From assembly GCA_028821775.1 (NCBI GenBank), contig JAPKFB010000005.1, positions 26,257 through 90,256 of the forward strand: a stretch of DNA of 64,000 nucleotides, given 5' to 3'. Made by a program: the position numbers and the translations under genes. How positions within the stretch are numbered: position 1 is the stretch's first letter; every line of letters starts with the position of its first letter. Below the pieces are notes generated by a model, which ran no database searches, was not told where the DNA came from, and worked only from the letters and a program-made list of their open reading frames with translations. This DNA comes from Roseibacillus sp. (GTDB lineage: Bacteria > Verrucomicrobiota > Verrucomicrobiia > Verrucomicrobiales > Akkermansiaceae). Positions 25,529 to 44,781 of the stretch are shown one piece after another.

Positions 25529-25572
25529 GGGATGACCGGGAATTGTCCCCTTCCGCGCAGCGAGGCCTTCGC

Positions 25573-25794
25573 CTACTTCATCCCCTTGTTGTATTTCATC
25601 CACTCTTCCAGACGCGCCGTCCAGCCGGCTGAATCCACTCGCCCGGACGGTCCGTAGCCATGTCCCCCCTGCGAAAATCCCATCATCCCGATCTGGTTGG
25701 ATTCAACGCCCCGCTCCTTGCGCTTGAATCGCATGGTCCGGATCGCTCGCCGCACATCCAGCTGGGAAATCGCGAAATCGACGGATGTTCGAGG
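25573..25794 (-). pseudogene. Possible alpha/beta-hydrolase gene stub
   Basis: About 70 codons containing only a nucleophile-elbow region (VESNQIGMMGFSQGGHG). The flanking parts of the fold are absent. The stub is in the same frame as, and directly behind, the FtsX permease stop codon. Confidence 0.3.
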
Positions 25795-28700
25795 TCAAAT
25801 CCCGAAAGCCGCCTGCCTCCGATAGCCCACCCGATAACCAACCCACGCCCAGAGTAGGCTGTTCAGGGCAATCGCGACCACGAGTCCGCCGAGCCCAAGC
25901 AAGGTCTTCATCGGTGGCGTCCCAGTCACGGCCGGCAGGATCGCAACCAGCGAGGCGATCAGTCCGATTCCAAGTCCCCACCCGATGAAGGTCCTCACTT
26001 CTTTGAAGATCACCTCCTTGGTGACCGCTTGGGTAATCCCGATCGTCGCCAGGACTTGGAATTCGCCGCGGCGTTCCGCAAGATTGCGCGCCGTCACGAT
26101 GCCCAGTCCGGCGCTCCCCAAGATCAATCCGAGACCCCCAAGCACGTGAAAGATTGCGATGTAGGTGTTTTCCACGCCGTGGAATCCTTCCAGTCGTTCC
26201 TGGGTTCGCGTGATCGTGCTTCCCCGATCGGCGGTCACTTTTTGCAACTCCTCCCGCGCCGCAGCTAGCTCACCAGGAACATCGGCAAGAAACAATTGGT
26301 AGCCTTCCTGGGAGGGATAGAATTTCAGGAAGGCCTCTTCATCTACCACCAAGCTTCCCTGGAAGACGCTGTCCGCGAGGGCCCCCGTGATTTCGATTTC
26401 AAAATCCCCTCCCCATTCGTCGGTATAGGGAATGCGATCGCCAACCTTCTTTTTCAGCACCCACATCATGGTGGTCTGATCGATGAAGGCCCGGAGCACC
26501 CGCTCTTCCGAGGAGTCCCTGAGCAACTCCCAACCCCGCTCGATCGCGAGGCCCTTGCCCACTGCCTTGAGTGCAAAGGCATCACGCTCTGCGAGAGCCG
26601 CAACATCAGTCGCCAACAACCGCGGGCGAGTTGCCTTGTTCAAGTTGAAGCAACTTGCATCATCTCCCACCCCCATCCGGAAGGGCCGGATCTCACCAAG
26701 CAGATCACGCTGATCTCCAAGTTCGAAGTAGTCGGGATCCTTCTTCGCATCGGCGGTCCGATTGATCGGATTGGTCGTTTCGATCCAGAACGCGAAGCCC
26801 CCAGCTCCACTGGATTTCTCCGCCCACTCCTCGCCGCCGTGTTTCTGAAAAGCCGTCACCGCGATCACGAGAAACACCCCGCAGGCCAGGGTTCCGACCA
26901 CCACCAGGCTGCGGGTCGGCCGCCGGCCGCTGTTGAGGGTCGCCAAGGATCTCGCAGAGATGGCCTCCAGTTTGCGCCCTCCGCTCCATCCGAGCCACGC
27001 GCGATAGTTCAGAAGACCGGCGATCAGGAAGAACATTCCTGAGAGGAAGAAGGCCGCCTGGGGACCCATCGCACCACTCGCCACGATGCAGCCTAACCCT
27101 GCCACCAGGCACAGGAATTCCGCGATGAGAATCCGACGCACCTTCGATGCTCCTCGTCGTACCTCTTCGGTCCCGGCTTCCAAGCGCAAGGTCGCGTTTT
27201 TCTTTCCCTGCTTTCGCACCGTGAGCCAAATCACCAGCATGGAGATCTCCACGAACACCGCGAGCCCACTGAGCATCGTGAAGGGGTTGAAATGAAATTT
27301 GAAAAGCGAATCGGTGGTTCCCTCGTTCCAGATCGTTTCGAGAAAACGGAGAATGCCAATGCTGTAGGCAACCGCAATTCCGAGACCCACCATTCCACCT
27401 GCGATCACAATTAGGAGACCCTCCCACAACCGCCAACGCAGCACTTTTTTTGCGGGGATCCCCAAGGCCGACAAGAGGCCGCTCTCCCGGTTCCGTTGCT
27501 CGATGTTGAAGCGAAACAACATCGTGGTGAGAGTAATCGAAGCCACGATGAGAAAAAAACTCATGCTGAGAAAGAGAGTCGCAATGTCCACCGGCGACTT
27601 GGCTGCCGCAATCGCTTCCTCCCGCAGGTCCCGCAGGAGTAGGCCCGCCATTTGCGGATGGAAGACTGTGAGCAATTCCCCTTCGAATTCGTTCTTCCCG
27701 GCCTCTGCGATCGGAACGCGCAGCGAGGTGGAATTCCCCCAACGATTTCCGAAGAGCTCGCGGCCCCGCTCCTCCGTGATGAACGCCTTCGGGGTCCCAC
27801 GGTAGTCGTCCCAATAGTCTTCATCCACCTGCCGAATCCGGCCCAGGTCAAGGGGCAGACCGGGCGCCCAGTCCTGCGCGTCTTCGGCCTCGGCCACCCC
27901 CGGAAAGTCCGGCATCCATAGGCGGTCCGCGGCGAGGCCTTCCAAAGGAATGATGCTGCGCACCTTGAACTCAGCAGTGACCTCTGACAGTCGATTGCCA
28001 CGACCGAGGCTGAAATACGTCACCCTGAGGGGCTGCCCGGGCGATACCCCCAGGTCCTTCGCCAGCCATTCATTGATCACGATGTCGTCCTGCACAAAAT
28101 CATCCGGCAGGAATGGCGCGCCCCTTGCTCCCACCGCCGCGATGAGCGAGTAAGGCGTTTCCTTCCCATTGGCCGCAAAGGTGTTGACCAGATAACTGGT
28201 GACCGGAAGGGCGCTTGCATAGCGACCGATCACGGCATCCACGATTTGCGGCTCAAGAAAAATGCGAGCTGAACGAAGTTCCGTTGCCTGCGCAAGAGGG
28301 ATATCGACCAGGGAAAATCCATAGTCCGCCAGCTTCATGCGGTTGCGAATGCGCGCCAACAAACTCTCGTCGAATTTCTTGCTTCGGTCGTGGGATCCCA
28401 GCAGGAGAAGATTCGCCTGCGCGGGTTGATCGATGACCTGCTGCAGTCGCTTGAGCGGAACAAAAACTGTCGGAGTCGGCAACTGGGTCGCCACCAGGTT
28501 GAACCCCCCAAATTGAGGGGCATCCAGAACCTCCCGCACCTTGGCTCGAAAACTGATCACGTCCTCGGCTTCTCCCGAAAGGGGAGCATCACGAGACAAC
28601 ATCCCGGGTTCCTGCAGGCGCAGGATCACGGAGTCGCCAGGTGCCAACCCGAGAGAGGCGGCCAAGTGATCGTTCACTGCGACCTCCCGATCCGGCAGCT

Positions 28701-29076
28701 CAAGCGCCATTCCGTCACTCGGTGCAAAGTCCCAAAACGATTCGTCTACTCCCAGGATCTGGACCTGACCCAATGCCCGCCCGCTCTTCTGGCTGCTGAG
28801 CTGTCCCTTCAACAACAGCACCGGCGCACTTCGCAGGCCCTCCCCGCGCACTTCTGCAGCCAGTTCATCTCGAAAGAATCCCTCTCCCGCGATGAAGATC
28901 TGATCGATCTTTCCAACCCGATTCCTCGCAACTTCACGGAGCGTTTCCTTGACCGAGTCACCGGCCAGAAGCGCACCCAAGAGCACCGTGGCACCCAGAA
29001 CCGCTCCTGCCCAAACGCCGAGATAAGACAGCTTGAAGTGCCAGATCCCCCGACGGATGAAGGTCAAAGCATTCAT
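25795..29076 (-). CDS. ABC transporter permease with two FtsX domains (MacB/LolCE-like, 1093 aa)
   Basis: Two FtsX-type 4-TM modules (RESGLLSALGIPAKKVLRWRLWEGLL... and RRGEFQVLATIGITQAVTKEVIFKEV...) separated by large periplasmic regions. Start overlaps the ATPase stop (ATGA). Confidence 0.85.
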   Translation of the reverse strand: MNALTFIRRGIWHFKLSYLGVWAGAVLGATVLLGALLAGDSVKETLREVARNRVGKIDQIFIAGEGFFRDELAAEVRGEGLRSAPVLLLKGQLSSQKSGRALGQVQILGVDESFWDFAPSDGMALELPDREVAVNDHLAASLGLAPGDSVILRLQEPGMLSRDAPLSGEAEDVISFRAKVREVLDAPQFGGFNLVATQLPTPTVFVPLKRLQQVIDQPAQANLLLLGSHDRSKKFDESLLARIRNRMKLADYGFSLVDIPLAQATELRSARIFLEPQIVDAVIGRYASALPVTSYLVNTFAANGKETPYSLIAAVGARGAPFLPDDFVQDDIVINEWLAKDLGVSPGQPLRVTYFSLGRGNRLSEVTAEFKVRSIIPLEGLAADRLWMPDFPGVAEAEDAQDWAPGLPLDLGRIRQVDEDYWDDYRGTPKAFITEERGRELFGNRWGNSTSLRVPIAEAGKNEFEGELLTVFHPQMAGLLLRDLREEAIAAAKSPVDIATLFLSMSFFLIVASITLTTMLFRFNIEQRNRESGLLSALGIPAKKVLRWRLWEGLLIVIAGGMVGLGIAVAYSIGILRFLETIWNEGTTDSLFKFHFNPFTMLSGLAVFVEISMLVIWLTVRKQGKKNATLRLEAGTEEVRRGASKVRRILIAEFLCLVAGLGCIVASGAMGPQAAFFLSGMFFLIAGLLNYRAWLGWSGGRKLEAISARSLATLNSGRRPTRSLVVVGTLACGVFLVIAVTAFQKHGGEEWAEKSSGAGGFAFWIETTNPINRTADAKKDPDYFELGDQRDLLGEIRPFRMGVGDDASCFNLNKATRPRLLATDVAALAERDAFALKAVGKGLAIERGWELLRDSSEERVLRAFIDQTTMMWVLKKKVGDRIPYTDEWGGDFEIEITGALADSVFQGSLVVDEEAFLKFYPSQEGYQLFLADVPGELAAAREELQKVTADRGSTITRTQERLEGFHGVENTYIAIFHVLGGLGLILGSAGLGIVTARNLAERRGEFQVLATIGITQAVTKEVIFKEVRTFIGWGLGIGLIASLVAILPAVTGTPPMKTLLGLGGLVVAIALNSLLWAWVGYRVGYRRQAAFGI

Positions 29077-29747
29077 CGCTTTTCCAGTCTGCCACCACGA
29101 AGTTCGTAGTAGTTCTGCATCCGCTTCGCAAGAGCCGGGTTGTGGGTCACCACGATCAGAGTGACGCCCTTCTCTTCATTGAGCTGGACCAGAAGATCGG
29201 CCACCACCTCCGTCGTTTCCTCATCAAGCGAACCCGTCGGTTCATCCGCCAGAATCAGATCGGGCTCGTTCACCAGGGCCCGTGCGAGAGCCGTGCGCAA
29301 GCGCTCGCCTCCTGAGAGTTGATGGGGAAAGTGTCCCAGCCGGTCCTGCAACCCAACTTCCTCAAGAAGGGCCTTGGCTCGCTCGGTAGTGACCCCTTCG
29401 GCCTCCTCCCAGTCCCCGGCAAGCCGGGGAAGAATGACATTCTCCAGGAGAGTGCACTGCGGCAAGAGATGATGGTTCTGAAACACAAAGCCCAGCGAAC
29501 GATTGCGAAAGGCCGCGGCTTCTTCTTCGCTGAATCCGGCAACGTCTCTGCCGTCGATCTCAATGCGACCTTCGGTGGGACGGTCCAGCGCTCCCAGCAA
29601 ATTCAGCAAGGTCGTCTTTCCACTCCCGGAGGGGCCCACCACCGAGGCGGTCTCCCCCTTTCCAACTGTGAGGCAGATTCCATCGAGCACCCGCAATGAT
29701 TCGCCGGGCATCTCGTACGCTTTGTTGACACTCTGAACCTCAATCAT
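29073..29747 (-). CDS. ABC transporter ATP-binding protein (LolD/MacB type)
   Basis: Walker A GPSGSGKTT, signature LSGGERLR, Walker B LILADEPT. ATG 29747 overlaps the upstream ligase stop (ATGA); the alternative ORF-track start is 29765. Confidence 0.9.
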   Translation of the reverse strand: MIEVQSVNKAYEMPGESLRVLDGICLTVGKGETASVVGPSGSGKTTLLNLLGALDRPTEGRIEIDGRDVAGFSEEEAAAFRNRSLGFVFQNHHLLPQCTLLENVILPRLAGDWEEAEGVTTERAKALLEEVGLQDRLGHFPHQLSGGERLRTALARALVNEPDLILADEPTGSLDEETTEVVADLLVQLNEEKGVTLIVVTHNPALAKRMQNYYELRGGRLEKR

Positions 29748-30973
29748 TCGCGGATCACCTTCCATCGCTGGGCCTTCACTTCAAATACTGGCAACGTGCC
29801 GGACGCCACTGCTCTTACTGGAATCCGCATTGAAAAGAGGGCCCGGAGCCGGGTTTCGAGTTCTCTCTCGGCCGCTTCACTCGTGGAATTCTCAATCACG
29901 AGCCGAATTTCAGGCATGGCACCCCGTTCATCGACCTCCACTTGGTATTCGCCGACGCCGTCCACCGAACGCACCACCGCTTCGATCGCGCTGGGATAAA
30001 CATTCACCCCTCGCACCACCACCATGTCATCCGCCCGTCCGATGATGCCGCCTTCCAAGGCAAACTCAGCGGGGTCCATCCTCGCGGTGGCCACCGGCTT
30101 CACCAGATCGCCCGTGCGATAGCGGATGAGAGGAGAAGCGTAGCGTCCCAGCGTGGTGAGAACCAACTCCCCAATTTCTCCCATCGCAACATTCTCGCCA
30201 CTATCCGGATTGATGACCTCCGGGTAGTAGGAAGGATAGTAGATGCGCAAAAGATCCTGATTCTTCGGATCACTCACCGTCACCGGGCCGACTTCCGTCA
30301 TGCCGTGATGGTCCACCACCCGAGCTCCCCACTCCGCTTCGATGCGCTCTCGGACCTGGGGAATGCTGCCGCCCGGTTCTCCGCACACCACCAGGGTCTG
30401 CATTCCAAGATCCCCCACCTTAAGATCCATGCGCTTTCCAACCTCCGCCATGTGCAGGGCGTAGGTCGGAGTACAGGCCATCAATTCGGGCCGGTGCGTG
30501 GCGATCAATCTAAGCCGGTCTTCGCTGGAGAGTCCGCCCCCGGGAATGGATCGAATGCCCATTTCGGCAGCAGCCTCAAAGGCAGCCCAGAAGCCAATAA
30601 ATGGTCCAAACGAAAAGGGAAAGAAGGCGCTCTGACCGGGCATTGCTCCGGCGTTGGTCCAGACCCACTGCCAGGATTCGAGGATCCAGGCCCAGCCCGC
30701 ATAGTCATCGAGCCACGCCATCGGTTTGCCCCGCGTGCCGCTGGTCTGGTGAAACCTCGTATAGGTTTCCAGCGGATAACTCAGGGTGCGCCCGTACGGC
30801 GGGTGCGCTTCGTGATCCGCCGCGAGTTCATCCTTCGTCGTGAAGGGAACCAGAGCCGCGAACTCGGCCAGGCTCTCCACCCGTCGCAGATCTCCCAGCT
30901 TCTCCGCGTAGAATCCGTTCGCGGGAAGAATGGCACTGAGCAGGCTGTTGATCTTGGCGAGGGCCACGCTCAA
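29744..30973 (-). CDS. Phenylacetate-CoA ligase-like (PaaK/CapK/F390-synthetase family) adenylating enzyme
   Basis: FYAEKLG...VPFTTKDEL and FHQTSGTRGKPMAWLD (P-loop-like AMP motif). Length 409 aa. Confidence 0.8.
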   Translation of the reverse strand: MSVALAKINSLLSAILPANGFYAEKLGDLRRVESLAEFAALVPFTTKDELAADHEAHPPYGRTLSYPLETYTRFHQTSGTRGKPMAWLDDYAGWAWILESWQWVWTNAGAMPGQSAFFPFSFGPFIGFWAAFEAAAEMGIRSIPGGGLSSEDRLRLIATHRPELMACTPTYALHMAEVGKRMDLKVGDLGMQTLVVCGEPGGSIPQVRERIEAEWGARVVDHHGMTEVGPVTVSDPKNQDLLRIYYPSYYPEVINPDSGENVAMGEIGELVLTTLGRYASPLIRYRTGDLVKPVATARMDPAEFALEGGIIGRADDMVVVRGVNVYPSAIEAVVRSVDGVGEYQVEVDERGAMPEIRLVIENSTSEAAERELETRLRALFSMRIPVRAVASGTLPVFEVKAQRWKVIRE

Positions 30974-30977
30974 AAAA

Positions 30978-31559
30978 TTACTCGACCTTTGCTCCCACTT
31001 CGACGGATGCCTCCTTCACCGCTGGTGGAGGGCCGGGTTTGTACTTCACCACCATGAATCCTCCGAGCGCGGCCAGGACAATCCCAAACATGAACTGCCA
31101 GGGAATCGCTCCCACCCCACCGGGGGGGGGATGCATGCAAATCGCGACGAGCGCGTTGACGAGAGGCGCTCCGGCAAAAATGATGGACATGACGGACACC
31201 GCCACGATGGCCGGACTCATGCCACCCTTCGCCCCCGCGGCCATCGCGAGGAGAACGCAGAAAGCTCCGATTGCACCGAGGATGCCAGCCAGGAGGGAGA
31301 GCCACATTCCGCTCTTCGGCATCGACCAGTCGGTGTTCTTCGACATGAGGAGCACGATGAGCGGGGCGAGCACCGCGACGATGACGTAGGCAATGCCGAC
31401 GAAAAGGAAGGCCTTGTAGCGACCGAGTTCCTTGTCCGCCATGCCAACTTGTCCGGCGTGAAGAAAGATGCCGTAGAGCCCCCAACAGGCCACGGTCATG
31501 AGGGCAAACAGGAGCCAGTTCATGGATTTCTTTTTTGGTGATGAATGGGATGAGTTCAC
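30978..31559 (-). CDS. Small polytopic membrane protein, family unknown
   Basis: About 5 TM helices. GTG 31559 overlaps the thioesterase stop (GTGA); the alternative ATG 31523 gives MNWLLFALMTVACWGLYG. Confidence 0.6.
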   Translation of the reverse strand: MNSSHSSPKKKSMNWLLFALMTVACWGLYGIFLHAGQVGMADKELGRYKAFLFVGIAYVIVAVLAPLIVLLMSKNTDWSMPKSGMWLSLLAGILGAIGAFCVLLAMAAGAKGGMSPAIVAVSVMSIIFAGAPLVNALVAICMHPPPGGVGAIPWQFMFGIVLAALGGFMVVKYKPGPPPAVKEASVEVGAKVE

Positions 31560-32017
31560 GACGAGAGTGAAGACTTCGCTGCTTTTTGGGCAGCTTCGAG
31601 ATCGGCACGAATCTGATCTGGAATCGGCATCGCCGCAATGCCGCCGTTTTCAAATTTTACACAAACCGCCGTGATGCTCCCGATCGCAATGGGCGGTTCG
31701 TTGAGGTCGATAAAGAATCGAAAGCGATAGCGAATCGAGCGGGTGCGAATCTCATCGATCGACACCCGAATGGTGAGAATGTCATCGTTGCGGGCCGGTT
31801 TGCAAAACTCGCAGGTTGCATTCACGCGTGGCCACCCGATTTCGGTATCGCCCATCTGCTGATGGATCGCATGTCCGAGGCTGCGCATGAATTCATGCTC
31901 CGCAGTCTCCATGTAGCGATAGAAATTTGAGAAGTGCACAATCCCGGCCAGATCGGTTTCGTGAAACTCGACCCGGCGTTGGAACTCGAAGCAGTAGTCT
32001 TCACTCTCGACGCTCAT
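31556..32017 (-). CDS. Hotdog-fold acyl-CoA thioesterase (YbgC/4HBT type)
   Basis: VEFHETDLAGIVHFSNFYRYMETAEHEFMRSLG matches the 4HBT catalytic-Asp region. Confidence 0.85.
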   Translation of the reverse strand: MSVESEDYCFEFQRRVEFHETDLAGIVHFSNFYRYMETAEHEFMRSLGHAIHQQMGDTEIGWPRVNATCEFCKPARNDDILTIRVSIDEIRTRSIRYRFRFFIDLNEPPIAIGSITAVCVKFENGGIAAMPIPDQIRADLEAAQKAAKSSLSS

Positions 32018-32060
32018 CGTTCAGATTCAGTTTCCATTTTCAAGGTCCCGCTTCCTGGAG

Positions 32061-33359
32061 CTAGCGGGCGGCCGCGAGAACTCGCTCCGCGAGTTCCACG
32101 AAGCCGTCCTTCATAACGCCAACGCTATACCGCTCCTCCACCCCGCGGCGACCTCTTTCTCCGATCGCTCTAAGGGCTTCCGGATCGTTGAGGAGACCCT
32201 CCCAACGCCGGGCCAGTTCGGCGGGATCTCCAGGCCGAACGGAAATTCCACCTCCCGTCTTGACGGCTATTTCAGGGAAGGAAGACGCCTCGGGATTTAC
32301 CACCGGAACACCGCTCGCCATTGCTTCGAGCAGGTAAAGACCAAAGGCCTCCGGGTAAGTGACAGGCACGGAAAACAGCGTCAGTCCCCGCAGGAACTCC
32401 TCTTTCTCTTCCCGCGTGAGGTTGGGGCGCCAGACCACCAGGTCGGTGAGCCCTGCGACCTCGAGCTTCTTTTTTTGCACCTGCACGAATTTCTCGTCCG
32501 CCGCCGTGCACGCACCCGCAATTCGCAATTCGCAAGTTGGGTGCTTGCCCGCTTCCTGGAAGTTCAGATAGGCATCCACCAGCATCCCGAGACCTTTTTC
32601 CCGGCTCATCCGTGCGAGGTAGCCGATTGCTGGGGGATCTTCCATCTTCGCCGGGCCGTAGCCATCGAGCTTGATCCCATTCGGCAACACCTCGATGCTA
32701 TTCACATCGATCCCGAGACGATCGGCCATCAGATTCGCATAGAACTTGGTGGGCGAGACGAGCAGGTCCACTTCGGAAAGGCGTTCCTTCATCTCCTTCC
32801 ACGATTGTTCGCAGAAGGGCTCCGGCAAGCTGTCGAGGAAAGTGTCCTCCCCTTGGAAGAACGCGATCACCGGGATCTTGAGCCGCTTCTTCAATTCGCG
32901 GGTCAAGCCGGAGAGCAAGGCATTTGAGAGACAGATCAGATCCGGTCTTTCGTGATTCTCCAACCAGTCGAGAAGCTTTTCGAGTTCCTTCGTGAGCCGG
33001 CTTTCATCAACGCGCAACATGGCCAGGGTCATCTCCCCCTGATCCCGAGCACTCGTCATGTGACTTCGTTTTGCTACGGATCTCAGAAGCCCGTCCCCAT
33101 TGAGGAGATTGTCGAGCCAGCGTGGGGTGTGGCGGAAGAGCGCGAATTTCTGCTGCAAGAAAACGTTGACGCCACCAAAAAAGATGGGGGCCTCCTTCAC
33201 TTGAGGGAGCATCTCTTCATCGAGATGCATGGGAAGATACATCGGAAGGAGCGCCACTTCATGACCATCGCGGTGCAAGGCCGTCACCAGGGTGTTGTCA
33301 CGCATGCACGCCCCGCAGTGGTAGCTGCCGGTGCCCGCAGTGAGGAAGGTGATTTTCAT
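32061..33359 (-). CDS. Glycosyltransferase, GT4 (GT-B) family
   Basis: EAFGLYLLEAMASGVPVV is the E-x7-E-type motif. N-terminal MKITFLTAGTGSY. Confidence 0.85.
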   Translation of the reverse strand: MKITFLTAGTGSYHCGACMRDNTLVTALHRDGHEVALLPMYLPMHLDEEMLPQVKEAPIFFGGVNVFLQQKFALFRHTPRWLDNLLNGDGLLRSVAKRSHMTSARDQGEMTLAMLRVDESRLTKELEKLLDWLENHERPDLICLSNALLSGLTRELKKRLKIPVIAFFQGEDTFLDSLPEPFCEQSWKEMKERLSEVDLLVSPTKFYANLMADRLGIDVNSIEVLPNGIKLDGYGPAKMEDPPAIGYLARMSREKGLGMLVDAYLNFQEAGKHPTCELRIAGACTAADEKFVQVQKKKLEVAGLTDLVVWRPNLTREEKEEFLRGLTLFSVPVTYPEAFGLYLLEAMASGVPVVNPEASSFPEIAVKTGGGISVRPGDPAELARRWEGLLNDPEALRAIGERGRRGVEERYSVGVMKDGFVELAERVLAAAR

Positions 33360-33383
33360 TTCTCGCCTACTCAGCCATTAATA

Positions 33384-34649: not shown

Positions 34650-35206
34650 GAGTCCGGGGAGGTGGGAAGAATTTCAAGGATCCGGGCGAGGCAGGCCACG
34701 TTTCCCGCGGAGAGCTGATTGTAGCGGCCATAGAAGGTGTCCTCGCTACCAAGGCCCGACAGTTTGAGAGGAAGCTGCGCACGCTCCACCGAAAAATAGC
34801 CCAGCGGTGAGCTCAGGTAGTCCATTCCGCTTTCGTTCAAGATCCCTCCCAATGGTTGGCGGCCGGAGAGGATCGTTTCACGCAGGTTCTCCGGAAACTC
34901 CTCCACTTCAATTTCGATCAATCCAAATTCTGCGGCCTTTCCAGACTGTGCGCAACGGAGCACCACTTCCCGAAAATAGTGGCCCCCGGATTGACCGTCC
35001 GCCAGGACTTCCAGAGCCATCGCTTCACCATGGTGACGCTCAAGGGTCGAGGTCATGTCCACCCCATGCACCAGGAGGCTTCGATAGGGCTCAGGTATCT
35101 CCGTGGGCTCACACCACCGAAATGCTTCCGCCACCAAGCCCGCTCGCAAGAGGGACTCCCGAAGAAAATCGGGGAAGACCGGTTGCTGAAGTTGATCCAT
35201 TGACAA
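34646..35206 (-). CDS. Chorismate lyase-like (UbiC/DUF98 fold) protein
   Basis: LLVHGVDMTSTLERHHGE, YFREVVL and RQPLGGILNE resemble the Chor_lyase/DUF98 pattern. Weak, pattern-level call. Confidence 0.5.
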   Translation of the reverse strand: MSMDQLQQPVFPDFLRESLLRAGLVAEAFRWCEPTEIPEPYRSLLVHGVDMTSTLERHHGEAMALEVLADGQSGGHYFREVVLRCAQSGKAAEFGLIEIEVEEFPENLRETILSGRQPLGGILNESGMDYLSSPLGYFSVERAQLPLKLSGLGSEDTFYGRYNQLSAGNVACLARILEILPTSPDS

Positions 35207-35251
35207 CTAGATTACGTGGCGCTTCAGAAAGCCTATCGATGACCAAGCGTG

Positions 35252-36577
35252 CTAAACTAGTTGGTCCGTCTTGTGATGCTCGAGGAAAAAATCGTGGAGC
35301 ACATTGTCCACAGAGAGCAACCCATCACGATTGAGCATGATCGATCCCTCCATCACATCGAGGAGACCTTCCCGCTTCAGTTCGTCGAGTTGACTCGAAA
35401 ATTTCTCAAGAATGTTCACTCCGAACTTCTTCTGGAAGTATTTCGCCTCCACATGACCAAGCTTCATTTGAAGGATGAATTCCCGAATCATGCGCTCTTC
35501 CTCGTTCGTCCTGAAGGCGCGCTTGATGGGCATCTCCCCGGAATCAACCCCCTTCGTGTAATCGTCAATCTCAGTGAAATTTTGATAGTGCACCCCTTGC
35601 ACGTGGGAGAATGATGCCACCCCAAGTCCCACCAAATCTGCTCCTCCCCACAGGGCATCGCGGTAGATAAATTTGGCCTTCTCAGGATTCTTGACCGCCG
35701 TATAACCCGAGCTGATGGTATAGCCGTTGCTTTCCAGTTCGGCAAACGCCTCCTTAACCCAGCGACGCTTGGTCTCCCAGTCAGCCACCGGCGCCACCAG
35801 CGCTCCGTCAGCCTTCATCTCTTTGTAGATGGTCGTGTTGTAGGGAATCTCCATCTGGTAGATGGTGATGCTGTCGGGGCTCAGCTTGAGAACCTCCTCG
35901 ATGTTCTTTTGCCAATTCTCTTCCGTCTCCTCGAGCATGCCCGCTATGAGGTCGATGTTGATCTGGTCGAATTCTTCCGCCTGCGCGCGCTCATAAGCAC
36001 GCCACACTTCCTTGCTGCGGTGGGCGCGCCCGTTGATCTCGAGAATGCGATCGTCGAAATTCTCGATCCCGAGGCTGATCCGGGTCACTCCGATCTCCTT
36101 GATGGCGGCAAGCTTGCCCGGATTGAGGGTTCCGGGCTCACACTCGAAGGCGACCTCTTCGGCCTCGTCCCACGGGAGGATCGTTTTCATGCGATCGGTC
36201 AACTCGATGAGCTGCTTGGCGGAGAGGTAGGAAGGTGTTCCCCCACCGAAATAGACGAAGTGAGGTTTGCGTCCGGTGAGCAGGGGCTTCTTGGCGAGCA
36301 TCTCAAGCTCGCGCATGGTGCATTCGAGGTAGTCCTTGATCTCGTCAGCGTTCTTGTCGGTATAGACGCGGAAGTAACAGAAGTGGCAGCGCTTCCGGCA
36401 AAAGGGAATGTGATGATACAATCCCAGGGGAATGCCCGGCGCAGGCGCCGCCTCGAAGGCATCCAGCACTTCTGTTCTCTGCTCTTCGGTCCAGAAGGAG
36501 AAGGGCGGGTAGTTCGAGATGAAGTAATTCCCGGCCCGCGTGGCCTTCTTCTTGTCGGGGGTAACGATGTCACTCAT
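35252..36577 (-). CDS. HemN-like (class C) radical SAM enzyme
   Basis: CX3CX2C cluster motif (HIPFCRKRCHFCYF), GGGTPSYL and a HemN-type C-terminal domain. 441 aa. Confidence 0.85.
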   Translation of the reverse strand: MSDIVTPDKKKATRAGNYFISNYPPFSFWTEEQRTEVLDAFEAAPAPGIPLGLYHHIPFCRKRCHFCYFRVYTDKNADEIKDYLECTMRELEMLAKKPLLTGRKPHFVYFGGGTPSYLSAKQLIELTDRMKTILPWDEAEEVAFECEPGTLNPGKLAAIKEIGVTRISLGIENFDDRILEINGRAHRSKEVWRAYERAQAEEFDQINIDLIAGMLEETEENWQKNIEEVLKLSPDSITIYQMEIPYNTTIYKEMKADGALVAPVADWETKRRWVKEAFAELESNGYTISSGYTAVKNPEKAKFIYRDALWGGADLVGLGVASFSHVQGVHYQNFTEIDDYTKGVDSGEMPIKRAFRTNEEERMIREFILQMKLGHVEAKYFQKKFGVNILEKFSSQLDELKREGLLDVMEGSIMLNRDGLLSVDNVLHDFFLEHHKTDQLV

Positions 36578-36583
36578 AGCCTT

Positions 36584-37783
36584 TTATTGTCCTACGATAC
36601 AAAAGAGATTGCTGTCATTTCCGCCAACCACGATCCGGCCGTTGGCAAATGCGAGATCCGTGCTGATACCCTCGCCCAGATCAAGACGCCAGATCTCACT
36701 GCCGTCCTTCGGATTGAGAGCATACAGTCTTCCGTCTCCGGATCCAAAGACAACTGCATCATTGAAGACGATCGCCCCGCCATCCACGCGCGATCCGGTC
36801 TTCACCTTCCAAACCCGCTTTCCCGTTTCTCGATTCACCGCGTGCATGTGTTTGTCCCGGGATCCCACAAAGACATGTTCATCGCTCACTGCGGGAGCCG
36901 CATAAAACCCAAAATCCTTGTCTTCGTAAATCCACTTCGGCTTCTTTGCCTTGATGTCCGTAGCCACCAGTTGATTGGCGTAGTTCGCGGAGTAGACCAT
37001 CTTCCCAATCGTGGCGACGGTACCAATGATCTCGGCATCGACGGGCACTTCGTTGATCACGGTTCCATCGGAAACCTTGATCGCGTGCACCACCATATCG
37101 CATCCCCCCAGCACAATCGCCTTCCCGTCAACAAGAGCCGGGGTGCCATTGATTTGCTCTGCCGTTTCATAAATCCATGCCTCGCTCCCATCCTTCACCC
37201 TGAGCGCACGACAAATCCCGTCATATCCATTCACGATGATCCAGTCTTCGGTGTCATCGGGACTGCGCACGATGAGAGCGCCACCCACAAACTTGTCCGC
37301 TGCTTCGTACTTCCAGAGTTCCTTACCGGTCTTTTGATCGAGGCAATAGAAGAAGCGATCTGCCGATCCGATAAACACCTTGCCCCCTCCCACCGTCGGG
37401 GGGGCTTCAATCGAATCTTCGGTGACAAATTTCCAGCGCTCCTGACCGTTCTCGAAATTGATCGCGTAAAAGGTGCCCATCACGGTCCCCACATACACCA
37501 TGCCATCCGCAATCGCGGCATCGCCAATGACAGGGCCATCGAGCAGGATCTCCCACTTGATCTTCGGCTTGCGGGGAACGGGATCGTTCACCAGTCCCTG
37601 AAGAGCGGGGCCTCCTCGCGGAGTTTTCCAGCTCGTGGTCGTTTGTTTCTCCCGCGCGACCCTGTCCCCCTGGCCTGGTTCCTTCTTGGCAGCTCCCGCG
37701 TCCGCATTTGCGCTCGGAGCAGCGAGAAGCAGCAAGAGCGATCCTATGATTACGGAGTTGAGGACTAAGAACAATTTTTTCAT
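36584..37783 (-). CDS. Exported PQQ-like beta-propeller repeat protein
   Basis: Signal peptide MKKLFLVLNSVIIGSLLLLLAAPSANA. Repeated blades of the type G.VY.G...G..YA.....G.E.W. Confidence 0.8.
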   Translation of the reverse strand: MKKLFLVLNSVIIGSLLLLLAAPSANADAGAAKKEPGQGDRVAREKQTTTSWKTPRGGPALQGLVNDPVPRKPKIKWEILLDGPVIGDAAIADGMVYVGTVMGTFYAINFENGQERWKFVTEDSIEAPPTVGGGKVFIGSADRFFYCLDQKTGKELWKYEAADKFVGGALIVRSPDDTEDWIIVNGYDGICRALRVKDGSEAWIYETAEQINGTPALVDGKAIVLGGCDMVVHAIKVSDGTVINEVPVDAEIIGTVATIGKMVYSANYANQLVATDIKAKKPKWIYEDKDFGFYAAPAVSDEHVFVGSRDKHMHAVNRETGKRVWKVKTGSRVDGGAIVFNDAVVFGSGDGRLYALNPKDGSEIWRLDLGEGISTDLAFANGRIVVGGNDSNLFCIVGQ

Positions 37784-38940
37784 GTCGTGCTCGGGGTCAG
37801 CGATTCCAGGGCCTGCTTGTAGAGTAGCACAAATCCCTCTTCCGTCATCGCGCGAGGATTAAACTGTCCGGTCCACTGTTTGGTTGCGTCGCCCGCCAGC
37901 TCCGGGATTGCGGCCGCTTTCACTCCGGCCTCATCCAGGGATCCGAGATCGGCGATGCCAAGCAGGGCTTCCACCCAGTCAATGAGAGGAAGATCCGCAT
38001 ATCCCCGACGAGTGAGCAACTCGCCATAATGATCGTAGGTGTCGCGGGCTTCTGGATCCACATCGTTGACGCGCATGACATGGGGCAACATGATTGCCAC
38101 CGCCTTCCCGTGCACCAGACCAAAGCGGGCCGTGAGCGGGTTGGCCGAAGCGTGCGCCGCACCAAGCATGCTGTTCTCGATCGCAAGTCCCGAGAACGCC
38201 GCTCCCAACAACATTTCGCCGCGATCTTCCAGGGTGGCAGAATCGGTGAGCACCGCTTCGATGGAGGAGGCGATGCGGAGGAAGGCTTCCCGGGAGAAGG
38301 CCGAGGAAAACGCATTTCGCCGCGTGCACACCGCCGTCTCGAGGGCGTGCGCGAGCGCGTCGAGAGCAGTCAGAATCGCCACCGGTTGCGGCATGGACTC
38401 GGTGAGTTCCGGATCGAGAATGGCGAACTTCGCCAGGGCCTTGGGATCTCCGCACGCCATTTTTTCATGCGACCCGTCCCGACTGATCACCGCATAGCTT
38501 TGGCATTCACTGCCCGTTCCGGCGGTGGTCGGAACCGCGATGAACGGGAGCATTGGGCTCCTCGCGAGAGCATAGCCTTTGTAGTCGCTCATCGCTCCGC
38601 CGTTGGTGAGAAGAAAATTGCAGCCCTTGGCGGTGTCCATGCTGCTGCCCCCGCCGAGGCCCACGATACAGTCTACTTCCACTCCACGTGCAAACTCAGC
38701 AGCGGCCTTGATGTCGCTCTCCCCGGGACTCTCGTGAGTCGCATCATAGACCGTAAACTCAATCCCGGCCTCGGACAGCCTTGAAGTCGCACGTTCGACG
38801 TGGCCTGCCGAAACGATTCCCAAATCGGTCACGATCAGAACATGGCTTCCCCCAATTTCCTTCACGCAATCCGCGAGCTGCGACAATGCGCCGGGGCCGC
38901 CAACAAGCCTTGGGCTCGGTCTGGTTGTGAAGATCTCCAT
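37780..38940 (-). CDS. Iron-containing (group III) alcohol dehydrogenase
   Basis: GLGGGSSMDTAKG plus His-rich metal site blocks (DALAHALE, AHASANP..FGLVHG). ATG 38940 overlaps the ALDH stop (TGATG); a TTG at 38943 is also possible. Confidence 0.88.
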   Translation of the reverse strand: MEIFTTRPSPRLVGGPGALSQLADCVKEIGGSHVLIVTDLGIVSAGHVERATSRLSEAGIEFTVYDATHESPGESDIKAAAEFARGVEVDCIVGLGGGSSMDTAKGCNFLLTNGGAMSDYKGYALARSPMLPFIAVPTTAGTGSECQSYAVISRDGSHEKMACGDPKALAKFAILDPELTESMPQPVAILTALDALAHALETAVCTRRNAFSSAFSREAFLRIASSIEAVLTDSATLEDRGEMLLGAAFSGLAIENSMLGAAHASANPLTARFGLVHGKAVAIMLPHVMRVNDVDPEARDTYDHYGELLTRRGYADLPLIDWVEALLGIADLGSLDEAGVKAAAIPELAGDATKQWTGQFNPRAMTEEGFVLLYKQALESLTPSTT

Positions 38941-40376
38941 CAACTCACGGCCGCGAGGTTGCCCTGAATGGCACGACGCCGATACAGAAACTCAAAGAGA
39001 TTGCCTTCGTGCGGTTGTTCCCACTGCACGCGGTTGGTGGGGAAGGGTCCGATGTTGAGACGCTCGATGTCAGGGGAATTCATGAGTTGCCGGATCCAGA
39101 TGGGATCTTCGGTCCAGGCCGAGGCCACCAGGGTCTCCCCGATTTCGCTCAACATGCGCTCCTGCGGAATTTCGGTGACACTTGCAAAGGGGAACATGAA
39201 CTCCGTGTTGGCGAGTGGGTGATCGGAGTGGGCGCAAGATATCAGGGTGGGGCGCAGATAGGTTTGCCCGTGCATTTCAACCAGCCGCGGGCCCTTGCGA
39301 TAGCGCGCGGTGACGTCTTCCGCTCCCGCCACCTTGAGATGCTCGTCGATGAGATCGTTGATCGAACCCGCCCACTCCGTGTTGGAAAATCCACAGAGAA
39401 GAGCGTCTTCGTGATCGCGGGGAAGAGGTTCTATCGCCGCCAGTTCCTGCGCGATGGCATCCGCGATTTCTTCCCGACCAGAGGGCACAAGGATCGCAGA
39501 GGTGTTGATGCAACTCCGCCCCCCATTCGCGGAAACCGATTCCACCAGGGTTCTGGCGTGCTCGGTCCACTTGCCCATGAAGTCTTCGCCGATGAGAACC
39601 TTGCTGCGGCCCGTGCCATGCACCTGGATGCTTGGAAAGGCGGCATACTTGCGCACAGTGGCATCGCTCCCAAAAGAGATTCCCCGTCCGCAAGTCATCA
39701 GGATCGTGTCGCCACCCTCGTGGGTGGTTGGGTAAAATCCAAAGGCCTCCTTGGGAAATCCCGCCGCAATCAGCGCCTGGACGATCCGGAACGGCGTGAA
39801 GGGATCCTCGCGACCCGGTTTCAGAAGGACCGGAATTTTGAGCACGGGTGCAGGGAGCCAGAGGGAATTGACTGCCGGCGCGTTGCTGGGAAGAGAGACC
39901 CCCAGGGCATCCGTGACAGGATAGAAATTCACCTCGAGATCATTCAGGGAGGAAATTCCGCGATCGAAGAGGTCGAGGGAAATCCCGCGGGTCAGTCCGG
40001 CGATCACGGTGCGAATCTGAGACATGGCGGCATGGATCTTCCCCATGTTCATCCGGACCAAGGTGTGCGGCAGCTTGGTCAGGGCGGAGAGCGATTCGAC
40101 ATATTCCTGCGGCCCTTGGGCACTGTCCCCGAGGGGCAATTCTTCATGGAGGAAGAGCTCGGCGGCCTGCTCACAGTATGTCGCAAGGGTGTCGGTCGGG
40201 ATCTCATTGAGGGCAGCCCGCGACTTCGCAATCCCGAGCAGATCGCGCCGGATGAGCCCGGGATTTGCCGTGTGCGTCAACACCTTGCGGCCGGCGGAGG
40301 CTGGCAGCTCGACGGTGTCGAGACTGCGATACTTCTGTCCGAGACGCAGGATGGGAATGTGAATTTCCTCGCTCAT
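38940..40376 (-). CDS. Aldehyde dehydrogenase superfamily protein, possibly LuxC-like acyl reductase
   Basis: SLPSNAPAV..., KPGREDPFTP and catalytic-Cys block NGGRSCINTS. The C-terminal PHEGNLFEFL resembles the LuxC H-D/E-G tail (from memory of the family, not searched). Confidence 0.7.
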   Translation of the reverse strand: MSEEIHIPILRLGQKYRSLDTVELPASAGRKVLTHTANPGLIRRDLLGIAKSRAALNEIPTDTLATYCEQAAELFLHEELPLGDSAQGPQEYVESLSALTKLPHTLVRMNMGKIHAAMSQIRTVIAGLTRGISLDLFDRGISSLNDLEVNFYPVTDALGVSLPSNAPAVNSLWLPAPVLKIPVLLKPGREDPFTPFRIVQALIAAGFPKEAFGFYPTTHEGGDTILMTCGRGISFGSDATVRKYAAFPSIQVHGTGRSKVLIGEDFMGKWTEHARTLVESVSANGGRSCINTSAILVPSGREEIADAIAQELAAIEPLPRDHEDALLCGFSNTEWAGSINDLIDEHLKVAGAEDVTARYRKGPRLVEMHGQTYLRPTLISCAHSDHPLANTEFMFPFASVTEIPQERMLSEIGETLVASAWTEDPIWIRQLMNSPDIERLNIGPFPTNRVQWEQPHEGNLFEFLYRRRAIQGNLAAVS

Positions 40377-40406
40377 GATTGTGGCCTCTTCCTTCTGGTT
40401 CCGAAT

Positions 40407-41477
40407 CTAATAGACGCCCTCGATGACTTGCTTGCTGCCGCTCTGGAAAGGGCGCACGTCGCCAACCCCATCCCAGGGAAACTCCGCGCATGGTTTGCGC
40501 CGAATGGCCTCGTCGCGTTCGAGGAAGCGGGGCACGAAAAATTCCTTCGTCATGGTGGTAAGTTCGACCCGCCCGTATTCTCCGTAGGGGAGTTCGAGGG
40601 ATGAGTCTTCGGGATTCACGATGCGCAACACCGCCCGAGGTTGGGGCGCGTAGTAGGTCAGGCTGTATTCGCCCGGCTCACGCTTCCGACTGATGGCGAG
40701 CCCCATCAGGGTGTTTCCATAGGTCGGAGCGTAGTTGATCTTTCCTTCCAGCACTTCCTCTTCGATGAAGCGCACATACTGCGGGGTCATGGTGGTCCCC
40801 CCGGCGAAGACCCCCTTGATCCCGGCCTCCACGAGGGAGATGCGCTCGGCCAGGTTTTCAAGGAGCTTGGGGGTGGTGAAAATGCATTTGATGTCACGGT
40901 GACGAATGATGGTGACCGCTTGATCAATGACGTGCTCCTGGTACTTGCGCGCCATGGCATACTCCCCGTCCTTGATCAGGCGCTTCACCCACCGCGGATC
41001 GAGATCAATGAAGTAGCACGCTCCTCCTCGGCGATTCGCAAGATGCTCGATCGAGAGCCGCAAGCGACGTGGACCAGTGGGGCCCACCATGAGCCAGTTA
41101 CCGCCCTGCGGAAAAAAGTCGGGAGGATAGTGATCGCTGAATTCGGAGTAGTCGGTCTTGTAGTCTTCCCACCCGATTCGCTGCTTGGGCATGCCGGTAG
41201 TGCCTCCGGTCTCAAACACATTGTAGGGTTTGCCCGCGAAGGCCTTCGGGATGAAGCGGGCGGGATCTTCCTTGCGCAGGACGTCATCGTCGAAATGAGG
41301 GAACTTCTGGATATCGGCAAAGCAGGTCACCTCTGCGAGGGGATCAAAGTCCAACTCCTTGGCCCGTTCCAGCCAGTAGGGACAGCCGGTTTCGGGCGAA
41401 AAGTGCCATTTCATGCTCTCGCGCACGCGCTCCTCCAGCGCCGCGCGGGCCTCTTCCACAGTTAAATCACAGCTCAT
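40407..41477 (-). CDS. Short PaaK/LuxE-like adenylate-forming enzyme (356 aa)
   Basis: PaaK-like N-terminal region and FETGGTTGMPKQR AMP-binding P-loop. It appears to lack the canonical C-terminal ANL subdomain, and its size resembles LuxE acyl-protein synthetases. Confidence 0.6.
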   Translation of the reverse strand: MSCDLTVEEARAALEERVRESMKWHFSPETGCPYWLERAKELDFDPLAEVTCFADIQKFPHFDDDVLRKEDPARFIPKAFAGKPYNVFETGGTTGMPKQRIGWEDYKTDYSEFSDHYPPDFFPQGGNWLMVGPTGPRRLRLSIEHLANRRGGACYFIDLDPRWVKRLIKDGEYAMARKYQEHVIDQAVTIIRHRDIKCIFTTPKLLENLAERISLVEAGIKGVFAGGTTMTPQYVRFIEEEVLEGKINYAPTYGNTLMGLAISRKREPGEYSLTYYAPQPRAVLRIVNPEDSSLELPYGEYGRVELTTMTKEFFVPRFLERDEAIRRKPCAEFPWDGVGDVRPFQSGSKQVIEGVY

Positions 41478-41492
41478 GTCAGATGCGCCCCT

Positions 41493-41765
41493 TTAGGACG
41501 AGCGCTCATCCCTACCCCTTTCTAAAATTCCCGCAAGTCTTGCGATTCCCCCGAGTCCTGCAATTGCTTCGGATTCTCGGACTAACTCGCGAAATGGAGC
41601 TCCTTGAGCACCAGCGATCCCAAAAAATCGAACGGCCCGCTCCCCGTCATCTTCATCGGCCCAGTCGGTCCCGGCCCCTCCACGGGCATCGATATCTGGC
41701 CCTTTTCCCGCGACTGTAGCGAGCGAGGACAACAACCCAAATGCGATCGCAAGTGCATGCTTCAT
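41493..41765 (-). CDS. Small hypothetical secreted peptide/protein
   Basis: Signal peptide MKHALAIAFGLLSSLATVAG. GC3 bias decays in the 3' half, so the real product may be shorter or the region may be a leader. Confidence 0.3.
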   Translation of the reverse strand: MKHALAIAFGLLSSLATVAGKGPDIDARGGAGTDWADEDDGERAVRFFGIAGAQGAPFRELVRESEAIAGLGGIARLAGILERGRDERSS

Positions 41766-41796
41766 GCCACCCCATGAACCTCCGATGGCTCTACCG

Positions 41797-42822: not shown

Positions 42823-42888
42823 CGCCCAGCGTCACGAGAAGGCCGCACAAGGTCAAGTAAATGGCGTTCCTGACGACCTGATCAGTCC

Positions 42889-44754: not shown

Positions 44755-44781
44755 GCGGAGAATTTTGGCCAGCCTCCAGCT

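Follow-up and report, generated by a model that had tools for sequence, protein, structure and literature searches.

The bmp pathway joins a chorismate lyase, Bmp6, to the brominases Bmp5 and Bmp2, and the ambigol pathway assembles a lyase (Ab5), an adenylation enzyme (Ab6), a carrier protein (Ab8), a halogenase (Ab10) and a release enzyme (Ab9). In mycobacteria, the route to p-hydroxybenzoic acid derivatives (p-HBADs) and phenolic glycolipids employs Rv2949c, a lyase of the DUF98 type, together with FadD22 and glycosyltransferases. In Planctomycetales strain 10988, the chorismate-lyase-like/halogenase pair baaA-baaB has been proposed, without genetic validation, to furnish 3,5-dibromo-p-anisic acid (bioRxiv 10.1101/723874). 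Here we describe a 13-gene locus at positions 25795–41477 of a 64,000-nucleotide (nt) stretch of a Roseibacillus sp. genome; this whole stretch is referred to as the window. On balance we lean towards reading the locus as a single operon that would make, tailor and export a small aromatic compound derived from chorismate that is reduced, glycosylated and optionally halogenated. The 13 genes are as follows.

40407..41477, minus strand: gene 1, EhpF-like ANL protein, 356 amino acids (aa)
38940..40376, minus strand: gene 2, EhpG-like aldehyde dehydrogenase (ALDH), 478 aa
37780..38943, minus strand: gene 3, iron-containing alcohol dehydrogenase (Fe-ADH), 387 aa
36584..37783, minus strand: gene 4, exported beta-propeller of the BamB/PQQ_2 type, 399 aa
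35252..36577, minus strand: gene 5, HemN-like radical S-adenosylmethionine (SAM) protein of class C type, 441 aa
34646..35206, minus strand: gene 6, chorismate-lyase-fold protein, 186 aa
33384..34649, minus strand: gene 7, flavin-dependent halogenase, CndH/Bmp2/PltA type, 421 aa
32061..33359, minus strand: gene 8, glycosyltransferase of family 4 (GT4), 432 aa
31556..32017, minus strand: gene 9, hotdog acyl/aryl-CoA thioesterase of the YbgC/4HBT type, 153 aa
30978..31559, minus strand: gene 10, membrane protein (Mem) with five transmembrane (TM) segments, 193 aa
29744..30973, minus strand: gene 11, PaaK-like aryl/acyl-CoA ligase, 409 aa
29073..29765, minus strand: gene 12, ATP-binding cassette (ABC) ATPase of the LolD/MacB type, 230 aa, or 224 aa from the second Met
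25795..29076, minus strand: gene 13, duplicated FtsX-type permease with two large external loops, 1093 aa

A packed operon conserved in two classes

The locus is a real, tightly packed operon. The list of open reading frames (ORFs) and their translations gives 13 consecutive minus-strand ORFs at 25795–41477, and, as a sequence-only reading of this DNA had stated, no gap between them exceeds 45 nt. Of the six overlaps claimed in that reading, four are direct 4-nt start/stop overlaps (29073/29076, 31556/31559, 34646/34649 and 37780/37783), and two hold given alternative start codons: the ATGA overlap at 29744/29747 requires the ABC ATPase to start at its second Met (MIEVQ...), where the alignment to the LolD model also begins, and the 1-nt overlap at 38940 requires the Fe-ADH to start one codon into the listed ORF, at an ATG. 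The non-overlapping junctions have gaps of 4–45 nt. Because the peptidyl-prolyl isomerase gene that neighbors gene 13 downstream (24629–25528, plus strand) is convergent, the unit ends at 25795. Within 25795–41477, no gene was found for a ketosynthase (KS), acyl carrier protein (ACP), nonribosomal peptide synthetase (NRPS), polyketide synthase (PKS), terpene synthase, precursor of a ribosomally synthesized and post-translationally modified peptide, or regulator, which agrees with the earlier claim; with gaps this short there is no space for an extra KS, ACP, NRPS, terpene, regulator or small precursor gene. Scans of 25001–45000 returned 4 promoters against 5.4 expected from shuffled sequence and 17 terminators against 19, neither count exceeding chance.

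We scanned one genome per species, about 185,000 species genomes in all, with the lyase-like family of gene 6, and 217 matched. The counts that follow rest on the best 80 of these 217 genomes and on a tblastn table of their loci, in which denominators vary with the available flank. Nearly all of the 80 are metagenome-assembled genomes (MAGs) of Verrucomicrobiota; two Acidobacteriota chromosomes among them carry the lyase-like gene only, and a few contigs are probably mis-binned. All 13 genes, co-directional and in identical order, are present in 15 of the 80 loci, from Roseibacillus-clade and Opitutaceae/Pelagisphaera MAGs, bearing out the claim of one co-directional unit. Protein identity among these syntenic loci spans 40–90%. 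Identical or near-identical proteins are encoded in marine Roseibacillus and Akkermansiaceae MAGs, and the complete order is kept in Opitutaceae loci that belong to a different class (L001–L003 and L006). The 13-gene operon is thus conserved in many Verrucomicrobiota, across two classes. The cultured Haloferula chungangensis (GCA_042664875.1, L093) possesses at least 11 of the genes, from Fe-ADH to FtsX with a few genes inserted; the stretch examined there ends upstream of Fe-ADH. An Armatimonadota MAG harbors a partial copy, the HemN-to-FtsX part.

Other loci depart from the full order. The downstream six genes are present in 21 of 46 loci, and recurrent shorter forms include propeller-HemN-lyase-halogenase (L005 and L007), HemN-lyase-halogenase-GT4-thioesterase-Mem (L089) and the same without Mem (L090). 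On a 6-Mb contig (L094) the genes are re-ordered: Fe-ADH, HemN, lyase, halogenase, thioesterase, a doubled Mem, PaaK, three propellers, the EhpF-like gene, ALDH and an SSS symporter gene sit together without GT4 and ABC/FtsX. The locus is therefore modular; its reductase, GT4/thioesterase/membrane and ligase/ABC/FtsX modules come and go. That the genes co-localize in L094 although re-ordered argues for functional coupling. Chance juxtaposition is rejected, as synteny extends to other genera and another class, with the order kept at 40% identity and co-localization maintained despite re-ordering.

Core pair, halogenase and accessory genes

Family assignments were checked with Pfam and NCBIfam (both reported at E ≤ 0.01), sequence searches of the PDB and fold searches. 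Pfam and NCBIfam upheld the first calls of Fe-ADH, PQQ propeller, HemN-like protein, GT4, hotdog thioesterase, PaaK-like ligase and ABC ATPase.

The evolutionary core of the locus is the pair formed by the HemN-like and lyase-like genes, not the adenylation and reduction genes. The two adjoin in 68 of the 72 loci with enough flank, and gene 5 is 55–90% identical across loci. The protein matches Pfam Radical_SAM and, weakly, HemN_C; its cluster motif CxxxCxxC reads CRKRCHFC and the three-domain layout of HemN is present. The alignment to the NCBIfam hemN model covers protein residues 16–433 and model positions 15–443 of 454, and the score, 207.5 bits, falls below the cut-off of 324.95, so that membership in the HemN equivalog fails on score; STM4012 (193 bits) and ChuW/HutW (189 bits) are likewise below their respective cut-offs. 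The best solved relatives are HemN (1olt, E 8e-35) and NocN (E 2e-24). By analogy with class C radical SAM methyltransferases, gene 5 would most plausibly C-methylate the ring or a precursor.

For gene 6, an AlphaFold2 (AF2) model built from 46 homologues has a mean predicted local distance difference test (pLDDT) score of 91 and a predicted TM-score (pTM) of 0.87. Foldseek places it closest to AF1396 of the DUF98 family (2nwi, E 2e-6, TM-score 0.65–0.78), then to E. coli UbiC (1g81, E 1e-4) and then to UTRA ligand-binding domains. The model and these matches give gene 6 a chorismate-lyase/UTRA fold, confirming at the level of fold the earlier chorismate-lyase-like call; annotations by the Joint Genome Institute (JGI) name its homologues chorismate-pyruvate lyase. 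Across the family, R79 is nearly invariant and E178 invariant. On this modeled fold we propose gene 6 as a 4-hydroxybenzoate synthase.

In L057 and about a dozen further loci, the pair stands alone among housekeeping genes such as accD. On the Limisphaerales chromosome that holds L057 (7743–9956), where the pair adjoins accD and a cytidylyltransferase-like gene, the longest HemN-like ORF, 737 aa, is extended at its N terminus by ~300 residues without a family match; this form may be an ORF-calling artefact or a genuine fusion.

Gene 7 scores 118 bits against Pfam Trp_halogenase, and CndH is its closest solved relative (3e1t, E 9e-55), followed by 8zop, ChlB4, Bmp2, CmlS and PltA. All four hallmarks of a flavin halogenase are in place, in line with the first call: the GxGxxG FAD motif is GGGPAG at residues 14–19 (GGGPGG in CndH), WxWxIP is WFWNIP (WFWYIP), FxxPxxSxG is FLDPVFSSG (FVDPVFSSG), and K75 aligns in phmmer with CndH K76, as numbered from the printed alignment. 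CndH K76, the equivalent of PrnA K79, is the catalytic lysine of flavin-dependent halogenases. We assign gene 7 by these sequence hallmarks as a flavin-dependent halogenase.

Of 70 loci, 55 have the halogenase, placed after the pair. In four Opitutaceae MAGs (L050, L068, L072 and L087) the other 12 genes are kept and the halogenase alone is missing, so that the lyase-like gene directly precedes GT4; the sister locus L058 retains the halogenase and forms natural with/without pairs with these four. Such clean loss from otherwise complete loci is as expected of a tailoring step, and the halogenase is dispensable.

At the start of the array, the sequence-only reading had labeled genes 1 and 2 LuxE-like and LuxC-like. 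Neither the LuxE nor the LuxC Pfam model matched them at E ≤ 0.01, a LuxCDE-type fatty-acid reductase is rejected, and we replace the labels with EhpF and EhpG. Gene 1 matches the EhpF structures 3l2k/3hgu at E 1e-52, with residues 18–356 aligned to 24–366 of 3l2k; it lacks the C-terminal ANL subdomain, gives a weak Pfam AMP-binding match and is 72–92% identical among the syntenic loci. A homologue of gene 1 occurs in an ehp-like phenazine plasmid cluster (L092), where the ALDH gene directly 3′ of it encodes a protein 24% identical to gene 2 over 424 residues (E 6e-33), in identical order. Gene 2 itself matches Pfam Aldedh (E 2e-12) and has a GGRSC motif with the Cys in its translation. A published annotation assigns ehpG to the aldehyde dehydrogenase family (PMC11278526), and griseoluteic acid bears a hydroxymethyl group where its precursor PDC (phenazine-1,6-dicarboxylate) has a carboxyl (PMC3175449); a carboxyl of the aryl precursor thus becomes hydroxymethyl in that pathway.

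Streptomyces homologues of gene 1, at 37% identity, are annotated ‘arylcarboxylate reductase’, and others so annotated sit immediately upstream of a PKS of type I (L091). EhpF-like domains are also fused to class III aminotransferases in Streptomyces (P0270 and relatives, 824 aa), an arrangement that suggests acid-to-aldehyde-to-amine cassettes and fits an aldehyde product of EhpF-like domains. Representatives of EhpF-like clusters carry few organism names, among them Nitrospirota and the Streptomyces fusions. Gene 3 matches Pfam Fe-ADH (163 bits) and ADH_Fe_C and reaches no NCBIfam equivalog cut-off. We propose that genes 1 and 2 are an EhpF/EhpG-type aryl-carboxylate reductase pair, gene 1 being the activating half and gene 2 probably reducing the aryl-thioester or acyl-adenylate to the aldehyde, and that the Fe-ADH would take the aldehyde to the alcohol. 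The acid-to-aldehyde-to-alcohol module noted at the outset is thereby retained, better called EhpF/EhpG plus Fe-ADH by analogy with griseoluteic acid. To our knowledge, ATP- and NAD(P)H-dependent reduction of a carboxylate to an aldehyde by EhpF/EhpG has no in vitro demonstration.

Among the remaining genes, gene 4 matches Pfam Beta-prop_ACSF4 (197 bits) and PQQ_2 (153 bits), begins with a signal-peptide-like hydrophobic segment ending in AxA, and accompanies the core in the four-gene loci L005 and L007. Five PQQ_2/BamB-like propeller genes lie within a 17-kb part of the window, at 36584–37783(-), 44782–46713(-), 46616–48883(-), 51223–52635(+) and 52645–53928(+); comparable genes flank the Opitutaceae locus L001 and sit inside L094. 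Gene 8 matches Pfam Glycos_transf_1 and Glyco_transf_4 and no NCBIfam equivalog. Gene 9, with Pfam 4HBT_2 and 4HBT matches, is the only protein of the set above a curated NCBIfam cut-off (TIGR00051, YbgC/FadM family, 70.1 against 68.7 bits). Gene 11 matches Pfam AMP-binding and AMP-binding_C_2; its best NCBIfam model, PaaK (185 bits), is below cut-off, and FlxY and BagE/FevW score more weakly.

The five TM segments first assigned to gene 10 appear as five hydropathy peaks. An AF2 model, of modest confidence (pLDDT 72, pTM 0.49), likewise has five long helices and gave no Foldseek match at E ≤ 0.001. JGI calls its homologues ‘DMT-like permease’, the sole basis of the drug/metabolite transporter (DMT) label. 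Gene 10 is possibly half a DMT-type carrier; a doubled, 336-aa form at 10001–11011 of L094 fits a dimer resembling a 10-TM DMT carrier. Gene 12 matches Pfam ABC_tran and is nearest LolD in NCBIfam (258.6 bits, cut-off 307.75), then YbbA and MacB. In gene 13, hydropathy outlines TM1, a loop of ~455 aa and three further TM segments, followed by a TM, a loop of ~230 aa and another three. The earlier call of a double-FtsX permease stands as two units by hydropathy, whereas Pfam detects a single FtsX domain (504–627); NCBIfam gives a weak match to the ADOP duplicated permease, and MacB scores 17 bits. The ATPase matches, the FtsX domain and the hydropathy together bear out a MacB/Lol-type pump in the form of an ABC/duplicated-FtsX exporter. 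No LolD, LolC, LolE or MacB equivalog was reached, and the locus holds no membrane-fusion (MacA/TolC) or LolA/LolB-like partner gene.

Upstream of gene 1, the following features share its strand.

46616–48883, minus strand: PQQ_2 propeller (PQQ755), from Pfam and the ORF list
44782–46713, minus strand: PQQ_2 propeller (PQQ643), from Pfam and the ORF list
44530–44754, minus strand: DUF3311-like ORF of 74 aa, from Pfam and the ORF list
42889–44418, minus strand: SSS symporter, from Pfam and the ORF list
41478..41590, minus strand: conserved non-coding leader/promoter region directly upstream of gene 1

Opitutaceae and Pelagisphaera loci likewise have the run PQQ755-PQQ643-DUF3311-SSS upstream of their EhpF-like gene; the four genes are present in 23 of 46 loci and occur re-ordered in L094. 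The suggestion that the unit could be larger upstream is borne out for these four, which travel with the locus in both classes. Between the symporter gene and gene 1 lies a gene for a 341-aa single-TM protein (41797–42822, minus strand) that matches no family; its only counterpart was found in L008, the nearest relative, at 60% identity, and the Opitutaceae loci lack it. A gap of 320 nt lies upstream of gene 1, and a small ORF considered there is rejected: it is not conserved as protein, and only the final ~110 nt of the gap show conservation, at the DNA level. This leader has 73–87% nucleotide identity to eight Roseibacillus-clade loci and matched no Rfam family. Nine Roseibacillus-clade loci share its block CTTGCGGGATT(5 nt)AGAAAGG.GTAGGGAT without variation; the block lies 40–75 nt before the ATG and resembles paired -35 and -10 promoter elements spaced 16 nt apart. 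A conserved leader of ~110 nt with such a block suggests a separate promoter for the 13 genes. Elsewhere in the window, a secretin, a DUF2891 protein and an NPCBM-domain protein (56268–57755(-), 58241–59668(-), 53956–55773(+)) are encoded without evident link to the locus.

A predicted pathway and its rivals

From the families, motifs, fold, coupling and conservation described above, we would predict substrates, an order of steps and a product as follows. The UbiC-fold protein would convert chorismate to 4-hydroxybenzoate, or a close relative, with loss of pyruvate; the HemN-like radical SAM protein would modify the ring or a precursor, C-methylation being likeliest; and the PaaK-like ligase would form an aryl-CoA. 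Where present, the halogenase may act on either the free acid or the thioester, at the position ortho to the hydroxyl, after which the 4HBT-type thioesterase would release the acid. Ligase, halogenase and thioesterase would then constitute an activate-halogenate-release sub-route as in the ambigol pathway, CoA replacing the carrier protein. EhpF/EhpG would reduce the carboxylate to the aldehyde and the Fe-ADH the aldehyde to a benzylic alcohol, GT4 would attach a sugar, and the 5-TM protein and the ABC/duplicated-FtsX pump would bring the product to or across the envelope. The exported beta-propellers may receive the product, and the upstream SSS symporter may import a precursor acid. UbiC, a carboxylate reductase, an alcohol dehydrogenase and a glycosyltransferase make up the logic of the engineered gastrodin route, and since that logic is shared here we predict a halogenated and/or methylated hydroxybenzyl-alcohol glycoside.

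Several observations weigh against this pathway. Gene 6 had no match in Pfam, in NCBIfam, in a PDB phmmer search or in a PDB profile search (hmmsearch), and neither UbiC nor AF1396 was retrieved. In hhalign against E. coli UbiC (NC_000913.3) its probability was only 45% (E 2e-4); the alignment, which ends before the invariant E178, sets YFREVVL on UbiC YWLREILL and R79 on the Arg of YWLRE, a point in favor of the pathway. Because a sequence link to UbiC or DUF98 is undetectable, chorismate is suggested as the substrate by fold. The role given to the HemN-like enzyme is a guess, given its similar scores to the HemN, STM4012 and ChuW models, and the solitary occurrence of the pair in L057 implies that it may function independently of the remaining genes. 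Many six-gene loci keep the thioesterase without a ligase nearby. CndH-type halogenases usually use carrier-bound substrates, and no carrier protein is present in the locus; similarly, MacB-type pumps normally need partner proteins, and none is encoded here.

Among the rivals, we find it unlikely, yet deserving of weight, that the locus builds an envelope component: a structural glycoconjugate, phenolic glycolipid-like or another outer-membrane molecule, in place of a diffusible metabolite, with GT4, the 5-TM protein and the Lol/MacB-like pump central and the propellers as handling factors. The 5-TM family is very large and strongly conserved (4782 matches, the top 120 at 63–99% identity), the HemN-like protein and the halogenase keep 55–70% identity from one class to the other, uncommonly high for secondary metabolism, the ATPase is nearest LolD, and exported BamB-like propellers are always close by; in mycobacteria, moreover, Rv2949c serves just such phenolic glycolipids and p-HBADs. 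But the locus encodes no acyltransferase, PKS, fatty acid synthase (FAS) or prenyltransferase, and the supposedly central genes are dispensed with, since L094 lacks GT4 and ABC/FtsX and the six-gene loci lack ABC/FtsX. The marker pattern in 217 of about 185,000 species genomes also argues against a universal envelope function.

A bolder reading, which strikes us as quite unlikely, takes the HemN-like and UbiC-fold proteins as an unrecognised two-enzyme module for a new chorismate-derived aromatic block, widespread in Verrucomicrobiota and some neighboring phyla. A locus of 13–17 genes would turn this block into a halogenated, reduced and glycosylated molecule that is delivered to the periplasm and there serves the many co-located PQQ-like propellers as cofactor, ligand or envelope-anchored partner, and not into an antibiotic-type metabolite.

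Uptake and conversion or detoxification of an external aromatic acid, such as an algal or plant phenolic, is improbable. Here TonB-dependent receptor (TBDR)/SSS import would be followed by PaaK-like activation, reduction by ALDH and ADH, sugar conjugation and expulsion. The SSS symporter gene, with its DUF3311 partner, and a TonB-dependent receptor gene are upstream and co-directional, the SSS gene is retained in the re-ordered L094, and the PaaK-like ligase, hotdog thioesterase and ALDH are reminiscent of PaaK/PaaI/PaaZ. However, SSS is missing from L050, L068 and L072, which keep the rest, and ring-oxygenase, ring-cleavage and beta-oxidation genes are absent; the conserved core of chorismate-lyase fold and radical SAM is of biosynthetic type, and the flavoenzyme hallmarks are those of a halogenase, not a dehalogenase or hydroxylase.

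The probability is also low that two unrelated systems are superimposed, the HemN-like/lyase-fold pair being a housekeeping tetrapyrrole or cofactor module (HemN with a UTRA-like ligand-binding partner) inside an unrelated tailoring and export operon. Its solitary occurrences beside genes such as accD, the full-length HemN alignment, and a gene 6 fold that is the ligand-binding domain of GntR/HutC regulators would fit. Against this, the pair is translationally packed in mid-operon, is followed by the halogenase in most loci and stays contiguous with halogenase, thioesterase, Mem and PaaK amid the re-ordering of L094; the hemN cut-off is missed by >100 bits, and (near-)invariant Arg and Glu in the lyase-like family are as expected of an enzyme.

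A qhp-like system that matures a protein cofactor, with the exported propeller or another protein as substrate, is very improbable indeed and is rejected: the flavoprotein QhpG, radical SAM protein QhpD, ABC exporter QhpF and propeller subunit QhpB cooperate in the qhp operon, a set paralleled here, and QhpG is the second-best NCBIfam match of the flavoenzyme, ahead of the LodB/GoxB maturases, but it scores 136 against a cut-off of 240 and halogenases match better, the radical SAM protein is HemN-type and not SPASM-type, no small precursor gene could fit the gaps, and the lyase, ligases, thioesterase, GT4 and reductase pair are left unexplained. An anti-phage defense system is likewise rejected; PADLOC gave no hits for 10 of the 13 proteins.

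Should the single-operon pathway hold true, these bacteria would yield natural organohalogens or a phenolic glycoside resembling gastrodin, and an orphan HemN-like radical SAM subfamily and a divergent chorismate-lyase family would be assigned a function. Verrucomicrobiota, Roseibacillus, Pelagisphaera and Opitutaceae among them, abound in oceans, lakes and soils, and we know of almost no small molecules from them. The locus is among the most conserved non-housekeeping gene sets seen in this analysis of the phylum, with its marker family in at least 217 species-level genomes. No surprise in principle, it is a testable genome-mining lead, unusually widely conserved in an under-explored phylum, and the genes in cultured H. 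chungangensis make the prediction directly testable.

Comparison with described systems

No characterised pathway matched the locus. Literature searches for EhpF/EhpG, for HemN-like/lyase/halogenase combinations, for Verrucomicrobiota halogenases and for class C radical SAM enzymes with hydroxybenzoate did not find it described, and baaAB was the only precedent found.

The sequence-only reading had likened the locus to aryl-polyene and xanthomonadin clusters. The shared accessory logic stands, for flexirubin loci too, namely a hydroxybenzoate starter, an optional halogenase, a glycosyl- or acyltransferase, a thioesterase and Lol-like export; the ligase gives a weak match of the FlxY type. The polyene machinery does not: no KS, ACP, ketoreductase (KR) or dehydratase (DH) gene was found among the 13 genes or in the scanned flanks, and XanB2, which supplies the hydroxybenzoate there, has a different fold. 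Membership is rejected as KS and ACP genes are absent, and nearer precedents exist in the stand-alone halogenation of 4-hydroxybenzoate by baaAB, bmp and ambigol.

In the bmp and ambigol pathways, as predicted here, a chorismate lyase supplies 4-hydroxybenzoate to a halogenase. Bmp2 is among the nearest solved relatives of gene 7, and the adenylating and release enzymes that bracket halogenation in the ambigol pathway compare with the PaaK-like ligase and thioesterase. Unlike those pathways, the locus has no carrier protein, cytochrome P450 coupling enzyme or decarboxylating brominase, and its radical SAM, reductase, GT4 and ABC/FtsX genes are extra. The mycobacterial route shares the DUF98-type lyase fold, an adenylating enzyme, glycosyltransferases and envelope delivery of the product, but it belongs to another phylum and depends on Pks15/1; the locus possesses neither this nor any other PKS, and has a halogenase and a radical SAM protein.

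With MacB, LolCDE and YbbAP, type VII ABC transporters, genes 12 and 13 share a LolD/YbbA/MacB-like ATPase and an FtsX permease with large external loops, and with YbbP and ADOP the duplication of the permease. They differ in reaching no equivalog cut-off, in having no membrane-fusion or outer-membrane partner and in a first loop (~455 aa) that is unusually large.

The nearest precedents are baaA-baaB for the central pair and EhpF/EhpG, from the D-alanylgriseoluteic acid pathway of Pantoea agglomerans Eh1087, for genes 1 and 2. With the latter, the locus shares the homology and order of a short ANL protein followed by an ALDH; the substrate there is phenazine-1,6-dicarboxylate, whereas the locus has no phenazine core genes, and identity is 24–37%. 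The likeness to baaAB, drawn from the description of that locus, lies in a lyase-like gene that directly adjoins a halogenase gene, in a host from the Planctomycetes-Verrucomicrobia-Chlamydiae (PVC) superphylum, and in stand-alone enzymes without PKS or NRPS. In contrast, baa as described comprises two genes with the methyltransferase elsewhere, and the present locus adds the HemN-like gene, the reductase pair, the ADH, GT4, the thioesterase, the ligase and the exporter. The best-supported reading of the locus is a stand-alone-enzyme pathway to a halogenated hydroxybenzoate derivative, to which a radical SAM partner of orphan status, a carboxylate reductase made of two proteins, a glycosylation step and an ABC exporter of type VII are added.

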